64,000 nucleotides of DNA. It comes from an uncultured Acidobacteriota bacterium. Its GTDB lineage: Bacteria > Acidobacteriota > Thermoanaerobaculia > UBA5066. The stretch covers positions 288,001-352,000 of the forward strand of contig CAVZYA010000003.1 of the NCBI GenBank assembly GCA_963779415.1, written 5' to 3'. Position numbers and translations under genes: made by a program. The notes beneath the pieces were generated by a model, which did not search any database, was not told where the DNA came from, and saw only the letters and a list, made by a program, of their open reading frames with translations. Shown piece by piece: positions 12,327 through 44,925 of the stretch; position 1 is the stretch's first letter; each line of letters begins with the position of its first letter.

Positions 12327-12457
12327 GCGAGGGTGGCGAGAATCTCGTCTGCGTACCGCTGGCGCCCGCCGAGACGCCGCGCTACGGTTGTGGCGGATGC
12401 GATACGACAAGGCTCTCGAACTGGGGCTCAGGAGGCGGCTTCTGAAGTCCCTTCCGA

Positions 12458-12550
12458 GGCCCGAAAGTAGCCACCGGTAGGAACATAGATGCGGCTACCA
12501 GTAGGAACTTCCACGTCAAATGGCCCGAAAGCGGCTACCGGTAGCCACAT
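12458..12550. repeat. Three imperfect ~18-bp repeats (G(T/C)(A/G)GC(C/T)ACC(G/A)GTAG...), one with the palindrome GGCTACCGGTAGCC
   Basis: Copies start at 12467, 12491 and 12531; GGCCCGAAAG starts at 12458 and 12522, running into copies 1 and 3. Confidence 0.6.
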
Positions 12551-12568
12551 GGGGCTGCCGTCTAATAC

Positions 12569-13270
12569 TGGTTAGGCAGCCTGTCATGAAACGGATGGTC
12601 GTTCCTGTCATAGCCGCCGCTGCCGTGTCGCTGTCTGTTCTTGGCCTCGGAGCGACAAGGTCCGGGTTTTCCTTGCCGCCGTGGCTGCGTTCTACAGCCG
12701 AACCGGAGGTCCTCGCTGTTCACCTGTGGAACCTACCGAAGGAGTCCTTTCTATTTTGGATCGAATCGCCCCTCAAAGGCTGCGGAGACCAGGGTGGGCC
12801 CTGCCACTACCGTCTCTACGCAGCCTCCCGGCTTTCCGGGAAGACCCGGCTCATCATGCAGACAGACCCTCTCAAGTCCAAAGTTACACTTAACACCCTA
12901 TCGATTCGCCACGTCTATAGCCCACCGAAGTTCCCCGGGTTTCTGGAAGTACGTGGTGCGTCTGGCGCCGTGGGCGTATCACTCCACTTAATTGAGGCAG
13001 AGTGGTCCGCTCCGCTCGGAACATATAGTTTCAAGGTTGTCTTTGACGACGGAAGGCGGGCGTTCTTCTTCCGACATTCCGATGATGACTTCGTGGACGA
13101 GCTCATCGCTGTAGATCGGTGGGAATGGCAGCCCGGCCACTTCGACGTGAGCATTGGTATTCCAAGCGCGTATGAAGTATTTCGTTATCAGAAGGGCTCA
13201 TTTGTTCGCACAGCTAGCTACACAGTCTGGCCACCCCCACGGCCCCCAGGAAAATAGGGCTGCCTAACCA
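12569..13270 (+). mobile_element. Integron-type gene cassette (solitary; attC interrupted)
   Basis: Core site G|TTAGGC at 12571, 15 nt before the ATG; inverse core GCCTAAC at 13262-13268 just after the stop; 13-bp complementary ends TGGTTAGGCAGCC / GGCTGCCTAACCA; visibly lower GC. Confidence 0.7.
12586..13257 (+). CDS. Hypothetical exported/membrane-anchored protein (cassette ORF, 223 aa)
   Basis: Open frame with N-terminal hydrophobic segment 'MKRMVVPVIAAAAVSLSVLGLGA'; atypical codon usage. Confidence 0.65.
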   Translation: MKRMVVPVIAAAAVSLSVLGLGATRSGFSLPPWLRSTAEPEVLAVHLWNLPKESFLFWIESPLKGCGDQGGPCHYRLYAASRLSGKTRLIMQTDPLKSKVTLNTLSIRHVYSPPKFPGFLEVRGASGAVGVSLHLIEAEWSAPLGTYSFKVVFDDGRRAFFFRHSDDDFVDELIAVDRWEWQPGHFDVSIGIPSAYEVFRYQKGSFVRTASYTVWPPPRPPGK

Positions 13271-13272
13271 CG

Positions 13273-13631
13273 TATCTGGACTCCTCCTGTTGGTCAAGCG
13301 AGGGTGGTGTCTGATCTTCTCCTCTTAAGCAAGGCGACGTTTCGATGCGCGAGGTGCTTGCCGCGTCCGAACGAGCCGGGGGGGATGAGCGGTGGGGTCG
13401 CGACGGCACACGTATCTTCGGCCTCTCGAGGTGGAGCCAGCGTGGGCTCCGGGCCAGGATGAAATCCGCACACGGGGAGCCAATCGTTGGCACAACGGCC
13501 TCTTGGGGCCAGCGGGGTTATCGGCTTTCCCCCGTGTCGGTCGGACCGAGCTCATCTCTCGTTTCTCTTCGCGTTCGTCGGCGGGAAGGCTTTCTTTTAG
13601 ACTCCTTTCGCCGTTCGTCTCTTTAGGCCGG
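13273..13631 (-). mobile_element. Right end of an IS1111-type (IS110 family) element, transposase absent
   Basis: Minus strand: sub-terminal IR GGAGGAGTCCAG, outward -35 TTGACC (13297-13292), motifs GGTCCGACCG, AAGCCGATAAC, GCGGATTTCATCCTGGCCCGG and GAGGCCGAAGATACG; probable transposase stop CCG-GCC-TAA at 13631-13623. Confidence 0.7.
13390..13560 (-). ncRNA. Putative bridge RNA / seekRNA (boundaries approximate)
   Basis: Nested stems carrying short matches to the flanking target (TAACCcCG vs TAACCaCG) and to the element end (AGATACGTG). Confidence 0.6.
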
Positions 13632-13863
13632 GGTGATTGGGGTCAGGTCTCAGTTTTCTATTATAGAAGCCTCGGGGACAGCGGCCACGGGCAGGACGGG
13701 GCGGCCCGAAGAGGGCGGCGACGGCACTCGCCCGGTCCCGGATGACGGTGATTGGGGTCAGGTCTCACTTATCTATTATAGGAGCCTCTGGGACAGCGGC
13801 CACGGGCAGGACGGGGCGGCCCGAAGAGGGCGACGATGGCACCCGCCCGGTCCCGGATGACGG
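13632..13863 (+). repeat. Tandem repeat, 2 x 115 bp, headed by GGGGTCAGGTCTCA (REP/HUH-end-like)
   Basis: Copies start at 13632 and 13747; 7 mismatches counted by eye. Confidence 0.85.
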
Positions 13864-13929
13864 AGATACGGACCGGGGATGATCTAGACTCGCGGCGGAA
13901 GCAGGCCTCGAGGTCGTGAAGGAACTCCG

Positions 13930-14283
13930 ATGACGCGTCGGGAGCTGAAAGAGGCGGCGACCGAAGAGGGGCGGGCGGTGCTGGTCCCCGGCATGAAGGA
14001 GCCCGCCCTGCGCGGAGGCGGCGACATCGATTACACCTGTCCGGGCTGCGGGTCGGTACTGGCCGAGCAGGTCGGCGAGGGGCGCATCTGGGATCTCGTC
14101 ATCGAGTGCGGGAGCTGCGGGACGCTCGCCGAGTTCCCGAAGCTGGCCGAAGGGAGCCACGCGGACGGCTACGTCTTCTTTCCCGCGGGGCGTTTCCCGA
14201 TCACCCGGTCCGTCGACACCCGGGGCGCGCTCCTCGTCGGAGTCGGCGCCATCCGCGGCCGCTCGGCACCGTATCTCCACTGA
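13930..14283 (+). CDS. Small zinc-ribbon protein
   Basis: CPGC...CGSC pairs; AAGGAA upstream. Confidence 0.65.
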   Translation: MTRRELKEAATEEGRAVLVPGMKEPALRGGGDIDYTCPGCGSVLAEQVGEGRIWDLVIECGSCGTLAEFPKLAEGSHADGYVFFPAGRFPITRSVDTRGALLVGVGAIRGRSAPYLH

Positions 14284-14342
14284 ACACCCCTCAGCTGGAC
14301 TATGCTCGGAGGACTCGAAAAGAGAACTTTGAGGAGGTTCCG

Positions 14343-14903
14343 ATGGTTCCGGTGACGTCGCTGTGGCTCCCGATCGTCCTTTCGGCGGTGATTGTGTTTG
14401 TCGCCAGCTCGATCATCCACATGGTCCTTCCGTTCCACAAAGGCGACTACAAGAAGCTCCCGAACGAGGAGGGCGTGATGGACGCTCTCCGGGCGTTCAA
14501 GCTGGGGGCGGGGGACTATGTCTTCCCGTGCGTCGGGAGCCCGAAGGAGATGAAGGAACCGGCCTTTCTCGAGAAGAGAACCCGGGGGCCCGTCGGCATG
14601 ATGACGATCATCGAGAGCGGCCCCGTCTCCATGGGGCCGAGCCTCGCCCAGTGGTTCCTCTACTGCCTCGTGGTCGGCGTCTTCGCCGCGTACATCTCGG
14701 GGCGCGCCCTCGGGCCGGGCGCGCATTACCTGAAGGTATTCCGTTTCGCGGGCGCGACCGCCTTCATCGGCTACTCGCTCGCCCTCTGGCAGAACACGAT
14801 CTGGTACAAGCGCGCCTCCCTGACGACGCTCAAGTCGAACGTGGACGGACTCGTCTACGGGCTCCTGACGGCCGGGACCTTCGGCTGGCTCTGGCCCCGC
14901 TGA
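14343..14903 (+). CDS. Conserved hypothetical membrane protein
   Basis: Strong GAGGAGG RBS; ~4 TM segments; ends 'GTFGWLWPR'. Confidence 0.75.
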   Translation: MVPVTSLWLPIVLSAVIVFVASSIIHMVLPFHKGDYKKLPNEEGVMDALRAFKLGAGDYVFPCVGSPKEMKEPAFLEKRTRGPVGMMTIIESGPVSMGPSLAQWFLYCLVVGVFAAYISGRALGPGAHYLKVFRFAGATAFIGYSLALWQNTIWYKRASLTTLKSNVDGLVYGLLTAGTFGWLWPR

Positions 14904-42804: not shown

Positions 42805-44925
42805 TCAGGAAGATCGGAGCGCCTGCCTGAATGCTGCGATGGTCTCGCGGAGGCCTTCCATGTCCCGAGCCTCGGCGCTCCCCCCGAACGACTCGCGGAG
42901 GTACGCTCGAACGACTCTCGTCGCGATGGCGTATCCGCCAGGGGCGACTCGCTTCGTCTCGGCGAGCGTCTCTGCGGGCACGGCCGACGCCGTCAGCCGC
43001 GCGCCGCGGCGCCGGAGGATCCGCTGAAGCTTCCGGTACGCCGCCGCTGCCGGCGGAAGACGTCCCGCGAAGCCCGTCGCACGACGAAAGACGAGAAGGC
43101 CGATAAGAGCCACGACGACCGCGACGCCGAGCGCCGCCGCCACGAGGCCGGCACGGCCCAGCTTCGTCCCCGTGGCGCGAAGGACGCCCCGGAACCGGTC
43201 GAGCGCGCCAACGGCCGACGCGGCGATCGTCCCGACCGTATCGCGAGCCGCACGGATCAGCTCGATCTGGTCTCCCTGCGTGAAGCCGAGAAGGTACCGG
43301 TCGTAGAGGAACTCCACGCCGTCCGAGATCTGCCGCAGCCGCGAGAGGAGAGGCACCCGGGTGACGCCGGGGACGCCCGCGGCCGGCGTCGGATCGAAGG
43401 GGACCCACCCCTTCTCGCCGCACCAGGCCTCGACCCACGCGTGCGCGTGCTCGCCCCGGATCAGAACGTAGTGGCCAAACGGCCCGATCTCCCCTCCGGC
43501 GAACCCCGCGACGAAGCGGCTCGGTATCCCGATCTCGCGCAGAAGGAGCGCCATCGCCGTCGCGAAGCTCTGGCAATGACCGCGCTTCTTCTCCGTTAGA
43601 AAGAGCTCCACCCCGTCCGGACCGGACGGCAGGCCTTCGAGCGCGTACGAGAAATCGGACCGGAGCCACCCTTCGAGCCGGGCCGCCGCGGCCTCCGGAT
43701 CCCGTCCGGGATCGATCCCCGCCGTCCGTTCGCGGGCGATCCGCGCGAGCGCCTCCGACGGGGGCGCGGCCGAAGTCTCCACGACGTTCCCCGGCGCGCG
43801 GTCCGGCTCCGGAGAGGGGGCGAGAAACGCGGTGTAGCGAAGAGTCCGGTCCGGCTTGTAGAAGAGCCGGAGATTTCGCGCCTGATCCCGCTCCAACTGC
43901 GCCGACGTCCAGCCACGGAACGAGGACTCCTCGAAGCGAAGGGCCATGCCGCGGACGGGGAAGGGAATGTAGCGGGAGTCGAGCGGCAAGAGGTCGATCT
44001 CGAACGAGTGACTCTCGTCCGGAATCGGAGTCCTCGGACCCCCGAGCGGCACGAAGGCGCCCCCGGCCGCCGGGAAGAGGCGGCCGCGCGCTTTCGGGTT
44101 CCTCCACGCGCGCCCGTCCCACGTCTCGTAGGCCGCCACGCGGAGGCGGAGGAGTCCCTCCTCCCAGCTCTCGCCGCTGCCGGCCGACGTGAGGCGGGCG
44201 AGGACCCGGTCGCTCTTCTTCAGCGTCCCGAAGAGATCGGGCTCGGCTGTCTCCGAGATTCCCGTCGTGATCTCCTGTCCGCTCGCGACGCCGCGGACGT
44301 AAGGAGTGCGGAGGCGCGGAAGAATCGCGAAGAACGGGACCGCGAGAATGAGGGCGGCGGCGACCGAAGCCGAGAGTGAGCCCCATCCGGGAAGGCCCGC
44401 GGCGCGCGGGTCGCGGCTCCATTCCTCGGGAGCGGCGGCGAGGTCGCGCAGGAGCGCCCACCGGACGAGGACGCGCCACGCCATGACGCCGAAGACGGCG
44501 ACGAAGAGAAGGATCGAGAAGTGGAAGGAGGTCGAGACCGAGGCGACGAAGAGGAATCCGCAGAGGATGAGCGCCATCGAAAGGTCGCGTTCCCGGCGGA
44601 GGGAGGCGAGCCGGAAGAGCATCGTGAAGAGGAGCAGGTGGAGCGTGGCCCGGAGGAGGCTGTGGCTTCCGTAGCGGATGTCGGCGTAGTAGACCGGGAG
44701 ATAGAGAAGGCCGGCGACGTTCAGGACCGCGTTGGACAGGCGAAGGATCTTTCGGCGCCGGGCGCGGAGGAGGATCGCTCCGAGCGCGAGGAGGTAGAGG
44801 GCGAGAAGCCCGACTTCGACCGCGTACGCGAAGAAGAGGGGGACGGGGGCGAGCGCCGCGAGCGTCCCGACCGCGAGGAGCCGCTCGCGGAGGAACGGAA
44901 GATCCGCCTCCGGCGCCGCCGTCAT
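42805..44925 (-). CDS. DUF3488/TgpA-type membrane transglutaminase-like protein
   Basis: N-terminal TMs; triad 'GHCQSFA', 'HAHAWVE', 'FDPTP'. Confidence 0.9.
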   Translation of the reverse strand: MTAAPEADLPFLRERLLAVGTLAALAPVPLFFAYAVEVGLLALYLLALGAILLRARRRKILRLSNAVLNVAGLLYLPVYYADIRYGSHSLLRATLHLLLFTMLFRLASLRRERDLSMALILCGFLFVASVSTSFHFSILLFVAVFGVMAWRVLVRWALLRDLAAAPEEWSRDPRAAGLPGWGSLSASVAAALILAVPFFAILPRLRTPYVRGVASGQEITTGISETAEPDLFGTLKKSDRVLARLTSAGSGESWEEGLLRLRVAAYETWDGRAWRNPKARGRLFPAAGGAFVPLGGPRTPIPDESHSFEIDLLPLDSRYIPFPVRGMALRFEESSFRGWTSAQLERDQARNLRLFYKPDRTLRYTAFLAPSPEPDRAPGNVVETSAAPPSEALARIARERTAGIDPGRDPEAAAARLEGWLRSDFSYALEGLPSGPDGVELFLTEKKRGHCQSFATAMALLLREIGIPSRFVAGFAGGEIGPFGHYVLIRGEHAHAWVEAWCGEKGWVPFDPTPAAGVPGVTRVPLLSRLRQISDGVEFLYDRYLLGFTQGDQIELIRAARDTVGTIAASAVGALDRFRGVLRATGTKLGRAGLVAAALGVAVVVALIGLLVFRRATGFAGRLPPAAAAYRKLQRILRRRGARLTASAVPAETLAETKRVAPGGYAIATRVVRAYLRESFGGSAEARDMEGLRETIAAFRQALRSS

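Follow-up and report, generated by a model that had tools for sequence, protein, structure and literature searches.

The 64,000-nucleotide (nt) stretch analysed here, referred to as the window, comprised positions 288,001 to 352,000 of contig CAVZYA010000003.1 from an uncultured Acidobacteriota bacterium, and positions below are those of the window unless another contig is named. On its plus strand, an open reading frame (ORF) of a gene cassette, for which no Pfam family was found, was bounded by a perfect 13-nt inverted repeat, TGGTTAGGCAGCC (12569–12581) and GGCTGCCTAACCA (13258–13270), which contained the cassette boundaries GTTAGGC and GCCTAAC. The attC site of this solitary cassette was interrupted by a minus-strand segment, 13273–~13633, that is very probably a dead remnant of an insertion sequence (IS) of the IS1111-attC group, IS110 superfamily, with a whole seekRNA/bridge-RNA gene. 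The features of the locus were as follows.

12583–13257, plus strand: cassette ORF, 224 amino acids (aa) from this start (ORF list), whose attC carries the IS remnant
13262–13272, plus strand: left half of the interrupted attC and right target flank of the IS, made up of the R'' box GCCTAAC (13262–13268) and the 4-nt spacer CACG (13269–13272)
13273–~13633, minus strand: probable IS1111-attC-group remnant, with both the 3' non-coding region and the right end preserved in full
13273–13287, minus strand: IS right end, with the subterminal inverted repeat GGAGGAGTCC (13287–13278) and the terminal extension AGATA (13277–13273)
13292–13297, minus strand: -35-like hexamer TTGACC of a predicted circle-junction promoter (the plus strand reads GGTCAA)
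13298–13395, minus strand: poorly conserved spacer from the RNA gene to the right end, alignable only among close relatives
13396–13547, minus strand: seekRNA/bridge-RNA gene, closed by helix P1 and defined by a 29-sequence alignment with covariation
13623–13633, minus strand: inner break of the remnant, with the relic stop codon TAA (13625–13623) of the transposase gene (tnp) and about 8 nt of the tnp 3' end, placed by alignment with full-length tails

Missing beyond the inner break were tnp, the left end and the distal half of attC. The non-coding region measured ~350 nt from the relic stop codon (13625–13623) to the right end (13273), equal in length to that of the related copy G010b. No transposase gene was found in or beside the remnant, no long ORF was listed in 13262–13930, and no IS110-family gene lay nearby; likewise, no attC partner GTTRRRY was found downstream of the remnant in the window. 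Small proteins encoded in 13218–13745 were considered and discarded as ORFs without support, that at 13218–13493 merely reading through the IS end. The window therefore holds a remnant of an IS1111-attC member and is not itself a member, because the DEDD transposase gene is absent here and present upstream of the homologous tail in relatives.

Identification of the remnant came from these relatives. The segment 13259–~13632 was 79–84% identical over ~330 nt to sequence located directly downstream of full-length DEDD transposase genes in related genomes. In loci L018 and L032/L040, the homologous tail lay directly 3' of the full-length gene on the strand corresponding to the window minus strand, and the RNA gene was downstream of tnp in all full-length relatives. 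A first-pass annotation, made from the sequence alone, which had taken the region for the minus-strand RNA-gene tail of an IS110/IS1111-type element, is supported. The 351-aa L018 protein possessed the domains DEDD_Tnp_IS110 (PF01548, 42.6 bits) and Transposase_20 (PF02371, 78 bits), and its best named plasmid relatives were the transposases of ISPa25 (46.9% identity), ISPpu24 (44.2%) and ISKpn4 (43.6%). A DNA search with the window tail gave matches in 14 of 61 relatives, and when only the RNA core was searched for, 21 of the 401 genomes of the class gave a match; of the seven same-genus genomes, one had a match. The IS1111-attC group was reportedly named by Tetu and Holmes in 2008, and the remnant represents a new environmental high-G+C lineage of this already described group, the biology of which is known (PMC11187229; PMC11208160).

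The position of these elements in attC sites was clearest in the complete genome G040, where cassette arrays carried four copies, each interrupting an attC repeat at the same point and in the same direction, with intact attCs alongside. With a caret marking the insertion point or element boundary, the intact attCs read ...GAACATCGGC^TTGCAGCGGAC... and the interrupted ones AACATCG(G)^TATCTGGACTCC...GGAGTCCATCTCATCA^TTGCAGCGG. All 25 right junctions tabulated lay 4–6 nt from an RYYYAAC-type box, and left junctions followed L'' boxes of the CCGCTGCAA type. GGAGGAGTCCAGATA was present in 23 of the 25 right ends, G040d having GGACGAGTCC and G155 being matched only by the shorter GAGGAGTCC. The window right-end repeat GGAGGAGTCC was the inverse of the left-end repeat GGACTCCTCC of full-length copies, the two forming 10-bp subterminal inverted repeats; the left end of the window copy being deleted, this partner is known only from relatives. 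The orientation in the window, with tnp antiparallel to the cassette gene, is that usual for the IS1111-attC group.

Several variants were observed among the relatives. Locus L045 (G291:C13, oriented ~1243–1792) was a ~550-nt mini element situated between the two attC halves; it had both ends, a complete RNA gene and only the final ~100 nt of tnp, and is a non-autonomous derivative with its own guide RNA. In L049 (G279a) and L054 (G220a), the right end was duplicated in tandem before the attC flank (GGAGGAGTCCAGATA twice, 0 or 4 nt apart). In full-length copies (L040 651–663, L018 9–21), a conserved hairpin, GGCATC...GTGCCAACG, was present in the left end, which in G010b and G028a contained GTTGTGCCAACG, a 12-nt identity with the window left target guide (13496–13485, see below) that resembles the target half-site GCTGCAACG.

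The fold of the RNA was examined in an alignment (A2) of 29 distinct sequences, among them the ISPa25 and ISKpn4 non-coding regions; the structure tested comprised 40 pairs in seven helices. Standard pairs occupied 93.0% of cells, versus 34.5–47.3% when partners were slid by 1–3 columns, and 14 pairs were changed on both sides versus 5.3 in shuffles, with none of 500 shuffles as high. Pairing in the P7 hairpin was kept through the variants GCC/GGC, CGGC/GCCG, GCGC/GCGC and GGCC/GGCC, and frequent G-U pairs in P3, P4, P5 and P6 assigned the RNA to the minus strand. This covariation supports a two-loop seekRNA/bridge-RNA fold. The window RNA gene was complete, having all seven helices intact and being 89–92% identical to the RNA genes of full-length elements, while distant elements had in common with the window only 13395–13590 and the terminal 29 nt. 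In 5' to 3' order on the minus strand, the parts of the RNA were as follows.

13547–13540 with 13404–13396, minus strand: helix P1
13537–13530 with 13477–13470, minus strand: helix P2
13526–13520 with 13484–13478, minus strand: helix P3
13520–13511, minus strand: 5' strand of the target loop, right target guide TAACCCCGCT, complementary to the tnp-sense strand of the R''-side flank
13511–13507 with 13500–13496, minus strand: P4, hairpin between the target strands
13496–13485, minus strand: 3' strand of the target loop, left target guide GTTGTGCCAACG, in the same sense as the L''-side flank CCGCTGCAA plus CG
13469–13467 with 13408–13406, minus strand: helix P5
13466–13457, minus strand: 5' strand of the donor loop, left donor guide GATTTCATCC, complementary to the left end GGATGAA
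13456–13452 with 13423–13419, minus strand: helix P6
13450–13445 with 13438–13433, minus strand: P7, inside P6, with a linker
13418–13409, minus strand: 3' strand of the donor loop, right donor guide AAGATACGTG, identical to the right end plus flank, AGATA^CGTG

The four guide segments named in the first-pass annotation all fell within single-stranded loop strands of this covariation-supported fold. The first, CACGTATCT, was found as described at 13269–13277 and 13409–13417, a 9-mer occurring twice in 64 kb versus 0.06 expected; a second copy inside 13278–13640 was reached by 1 of 2000 mononucleotide shuffles. The others were TAACCCCG (plus strand CGGGGTTA) at 13520–13513, matching the attC flank TAACCACG at 7 of 8 positions, TGCCAACG (plus strand CGTTGGCA) at 13492–13485, and ATTTCATC (plus strand GATGAAAT) at 13465–13458, the first-named sequence being that of the minus strand in each case. 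The match of TAACCCCG to TAACCACG was not significant alone, since 438 of 2000 shuffles gave such a match; the window by itself was therefore insufficient and related sequences were needed, the significance of this match and of the other two segments coming from comparison with related elements only. That result, together with the start of the common sequence at the attC R'' box in every copy, would be compatible with repeats that arose by chance or that belong to an attC- or cassette-associated repeat family with neither IS nor RNA. Such an explanation is hardly credible, given that the tail is contiguous with DEDD transposase genes in relatives, lacks attC inverted symmetry as well as a GTTRRRY partner downstream, and aligns helix for helix with the ISPa25 and ISKpn4 non-coding regions. 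A reading as attC only was rejected on the same contiguity, on the G040 copies inside attC repeats and on the covarying fold.

For the IS remnant with its guide RNA, loop strands and junctions were tabulated in 31 copies, and cognate pairings were compared with shuffled ones among distinct copies. The right target guide matched the 6 nt beside the AAC/GTT anchor at 65 of 120 positions in 20 distinct copies (shuffled mean 46.3), and the last 7 nt of the left target guide matched 5 flank nt plus 2 element nt at 58 of 91 positions in 13 distinct copies (shuffled mean 38.7); for each guide, 0 of 20000 shuffles were as high. Target sites thus co-vary with the RNA segments, as had been anticipated. 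Examples for the right target guide were AACATCGGT with flank ACCGATGTT (G040, G048), AACACCTCT with GAGGTGTT (G196), and ACCCC with GGGGT (G009), and 9 contiguous nt of the window guide were matched in an intact attC of the window's own genome (G000), TAACCCCGCG^CTGCAG. The strand pairing with tnp-sense DNA was located 5' of the strand pairing with the opposite DNA, and the two matches overlapped in the target. As for the donor loop, the left donor guide matched the lineage left end GGATGAAGTGGACTCC at 7–8 of 9 positions, and the right-end pentamers AGATA (window lineage), ATATA (ISPa25) and ATATG (ISKpn4) were each equal to a pentamer in the element's own RNA.

The missing left end had been predicted to begin with (C)GATGAA, followed by an inverted repeat like CTGGACTCC. 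Six window-lineage copies with a left end (G010b, G291, G196a/b and G279a/b) read CCGCTGCAA^GGATGAAGTGGACTCCTCC. Both GATGAA, within GGATGAAGTGGACTCC, and the subsequent repeat, GGACTCC, were present in all six, but the base preceding GATGAA was G instead of C; at 18 left junctions, the base before GATG was G in 8, T in 9 and C in 1. A junction promoter is still predicted, with a different -10 box. TTGACC (minus strand, 13297–13292) is followed by exactly 17 nt (13291–13275) and then TACG (13274–13271), and the -10 hexamer spanning the junction would be TA^GGAT and not TACG^AT. TTGAYN was located 17 nt from TA^GGAT in 11 of 11 lineage elements, four with their own left end and seven with the left end borrowed from G010b, as would suit a circle-junction promoter in an intact copy. 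In more distant lineages, the -35 box was 4 nt closer to the end and a -10-like hexamer was inside the left end.

A CG core common to donor and target, which had also been proposed, was not supported: it was absent from all 18 left junctions, and no dinucleotide was common to both junctions. CG ended most left target guides. Models with a core of CG, TG, AG, TA or a single A were tried, and none fitted both junctions in all lineages. At 25 right junctions, the dinucleotide after AGATA was CG in 16, TG in 3, CC in 3, AG in 2 and CA in 1, and it varied among near-identical copies, being CG in G291 and G010, TG in G196 and G279b, and AG in G279a; it is therefore target-derived, and the element ends in ...CCAGATA. 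Nor did empty sites read TAAC-N4-TTG as expected: intact attC halves read TAAC-N6-TTGCAG, in three of three cases in G000 and likewise in relatives, with few 5-nt exceptions. The spacing from the element to the GTT anchor at right junctions was 4 nt in 7 copies, 5 nt in 4 and 6 nt in 14, and the G040 copies had 4- or 5-nt spacers beside intact sites with 6. The missing spacer bases were apparently at the left junction in G272 and G023, which was not so in G040. The crossover register seems to vary by 0–2 nt, or else small deletions accompany insertion.

Five further remnants with a terminus identical to that of the window copy were found in G000, all preceded by RYYYAAC plus N4. Their inner breaks corresponded to window positions 13287, 13323, 13354, 13378 and 13410, compared with ~13632 for the window copy, and in one of the five, the terminal 92 nt of the element were fused to a truncated DEDD domain with 74% identity to the L018 protein. 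At C1:690361–690903 (L010 1300–1881, minus strand), a 193-aa ORF corresponded to residues 19–172 of the cognate DEDD transposase plus the last 92 nt of the element, and a second remnant lay 1060 nt beyond this fusion in unchanged orientation. In a search with nhmmer using the RNA alignment, the window copy was the only RNA copy in G000, and no intact cognate transposase was found in the assembly, in which the two other IS110-family proteins were only 28% identical. The window thus contains an orphan RNA gene, as far as this 92%-complete assembly shows. At C2:1588791–1592887 (L008, L011) there was a gene for an integron integrase (TIGR02249, 469 bits), with at least three intact attC halves nearby, and the intact attC halves of G000 had the form GCCTAAC/GTCTAAC-N6-TTGCAGCGGAC. 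The IS110-family gene beside intI (L008) was rejected as a second family copy, being 28% identical and having its CTGGACTC match inside the reading frame; the element to which it belongs, without GGACTCC repeats, was placed between two attC halves.

Instead of being dead, such a tail might be a non-autonomous module on which a transposase supplied in trans still acts, either mobilising it or recombining at it; ISPpu9 with its ssr9 modules and G291 with its tnp-less mini element would be comparable cases. The G291 element, with both ends and the RNA gene between attC halves, provides a precedent, as do the circle-forming solo RNA modules described for ISPpu9 (PMC12288879); the six G000 remnants have a common terminus, and two of them break exactly beside an internal AGATAC copy of the right end. 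Yet the window copy lacks a left end, with GGAGGAGTCC on the plus strand occurring only at 44148, 30 kb away, the six inner breakpoints are all different, a pattern of deletion and not of a discrete module, and an intact cognate transposase is missing from the assembly; mobilisation in trans is judged very unlikely here.

In the DNA of the right donor guide, the right-end terminus is repeated: AGATACG occurs at 13417–13411, within the 9-nt repeat AGATACGTG (13417–13409), and again at the true end. The remnants at C2:131743–131889 (equivalent to window 13263–13410) and C1:1362619–1362680 (equivalent to 13353–13411) broke exactly at the edge of the internal AGATAC(G), the latter being followed by an inverted duplication of the adjacent GTGTGCCGTCGAGAC; such breaks may reflect guide-encoding DNA used as a pseudo-end. 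Action of the internal AGATACG as a pseudo-end for the RNA-guided transposase, suggested by these two breaks and by the tandem right ends and the tnp-less mini element of relatives, is conceivable but unlikely. Were it so, the family would make its own modular derivatives, orphan tails in attC would result from guide-directed mis-recombination and not from random deletion, and they could stay landing or decoy sites for incoming copies.

The completeness of the RNA gene, with seven intact helices and its high identity to the genes of full-length elements, also raises the question of whether the orphan RNA was retained to act in trans, guiding or titrating the transposase of incoming IS1111-attC elements as a domesticated guide or decoy. 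SeekRNAs are not strictly confined to closely related transposases, according to PMC11187229. On the other hand, the gene is single-copy in G000 and without promoter evidence, a match was found in only one of the seven same-genus genomes searched, and a recent deletion predicts an intact sequence equally well; retention for a function in trans is accordingly regarded as very unlikely. A dead remnant with a preserved RNA gene remains the preferred interpretation.

Certain observations weigh against that interpretation. Single-sequence folding energy of the window RNA was unremarkable (z = -1.02; 27 of 200 shuffles folded as well), and Rfam yielded no family at gathering score in the 64-kb window, with three chance-level eukaryotic matches (E 1.6–4.3) in 12400–14400. 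The left target guide matched its flank only with a 1–3 nt bulge; of TGCCAACG, previously read as an L-box continuation, only CAACG, together with a GTTG block upstream, matched targets, the middle being that bulge. The left donor guide, compared with the first 9 nt of the left end in 9 distinct copies, gave 60 of 81 matches versus 58.5 in shuffles (6807 of 20000 as high) and thus no covariation, although highly complementary, because RNA strand and left end are both conserved; the right donor guide, compared with the 5 nt after AGATA in 15 distinct copies, gave 45 of 75 versus 40.5 (651 of 20000), a weak covariation. The shuffle tests ignore relatedness of the elements, and significance is therefore overstated. 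All six G000 remnants had a 4-nt spacer, versus 6 nt in the three intact attC halves of that genome, and, the assembly being 92% complete, a cognate transposase could sit in unassembled sequence.

Other repeats were observed around the remnant. From 13632, an unrelated tandem repeat consisted of two 115-nt units (13632–13861), 94% alike, each opening with GGGGTCAGGTCTCA...TCTATTATAG(A/G), an A+T-rich promoter-like motif. The 13-mer GGGGTCAGGTCTC, with one mismatch allowed, occurred 35 times in the genome, often after short GGGGTCA iterons, and the remnants at C2:131743 and C2:288043 had copies close to their inner breaks as well. On the other side of the cassette, the window region 12458–12581, between the end of a glycogen-phosphorylase-like ORF (12326) and the cassette, contained the direct repeats GGCCCGAAAG.GC.ACCGGTAG and a 30-nt hairpin, GGCTGCCGTCTAATACTGGTTAGGCAGCC, which resembles a collapsed attC.

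From these sequences, transcription, RNA-DNA pairing and a junction promoter can be proposed for an intact copy. Sequencing runs listed for 12600–13900 included none of RNA, only DNA metagenomes of small share. The element would excise as a circle in which the right end abuts the left end (...CCAGATA abutting GGATGAAG...; in full, the right terminus ...GGAGTCCAGATA joined straight to GGATGAAGTGGACTCC), creating a promoter of TTGACC, 17 nt and TA^GGAT across the junction. The transcript would span tnp and the non-coding region, the latter folding to a ~155-nt RNA closed by P1 and bearing two loops. In the target loop, the 5' strand TAACCCCGCT would pair with the tnp-sense strand of the R''-side spacer and the 3' strand (GUUG...CAACG) with the opposite strand of the L'' box (CCGCTGCAA plus CG); in the donor loop, UUUCAUCC would recognise the left end by pairing with GGATGAA, and AGAUACG the right end by pairing with AGATA and the bases that begin the flank. 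The DEDD transposase would then recombine the circle with attC. These steps cannot run at the window copy, which is inert; lacking a left end, it has no junction promoter.

In the literature, ISKpn4, ISPst6 and ISPa25 target one position in attC sites, and a seekRNA that is transcribed, transposase-bound and needed for transposition has been demonstrated experimentally only for ISEc11, ISKpn4, ISPa11 and ISPst6 (PMC11187229). The window lineage resembles the IS1111-attC elements ISKpn4, ISPst6 and ISPa25 in the DEDD transposase of its relatives with PF01548 and PF02371, in subterminal inverted repeats (7–17 bp in the family), short terminal extensions and a long non-coding region downstream of tnp, and in attC insertion at one position and orientation, between L'' box and spacer. 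The seekRNAs of these three also agree with the window lineage in having the top-strand match 5' of the bottom-strand match, an overlap in the target, a downstream location and a similar RNA length (PMC11187229). With ISPa25 and ISKpn4, the RNA blocks GCCGATAAC, ATGGCCCGG and AGGCCG.A.ATACGA are shared, as are the helices. The differences are that the cognate transposase is only 44–47% identical, that the right-end extension is AGATA and not ATATA (ISPa25) or ATATG (ISKpn4), that the -35 box is 4 nt further from the end, and that the host is an environmental genome of 68% G+C, in which the window copy lacks tnp and the left end.

Comparison with the bridge RNA of IS621 (PMC11208160) showed the same plan of a single RNA with separate loops for target and donor, each of two strands that address opposite DNA strands across the crossover, and a promoter formed at the circle junction, which for the window lineage is a prediction. 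IS621 has its RNA gene upstream of the recombinase, in the left end, but the window lineage has it 3' of tnp, in the right end; the donor strands are in a multiloop (P6 enclosing P7 and a linker), an arrangement reported there for many members of IS1111; the inverted repeats measure 10 bp and not 2–3 bp; and no dinucleotide core duplicated at both junctions was found among 25 right and 18 left junctions. ISPpu9 and its ssr9 (PMC12288879) are alike in being of the IS110 family with an RNA gene downstream of tnp and extra tnp-less RNA-gene copies in the genome. However, transposition is reported there not to require ssr9, which is said to form circles of its own, whereas the window-lineage RNA is read as a guide, and its orphan copies are nested deletions with only the right end in common.

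The locus adds no new mechanism. It does show that such a guide RNA can be decoded from the bare sequence to the point where a missing end of the element is predicted, the earlier decoding having been largely right. Programmable tools for genome insertion are being developed from RNA-guided IS110/IS1111 recombinases, and the attC-targeting group also disrupts integron cassette arrays. Together with its relatives, the locus forms a natural series within one lineage, from an environmental group of high G+C, in which target-loop strands have drifted together with attC variants while donor strands and element ends have stayed fixed, and this series constitutes a covariation set for the IS1111-type RNA, the donor loop of which is less well described than that of IS621.

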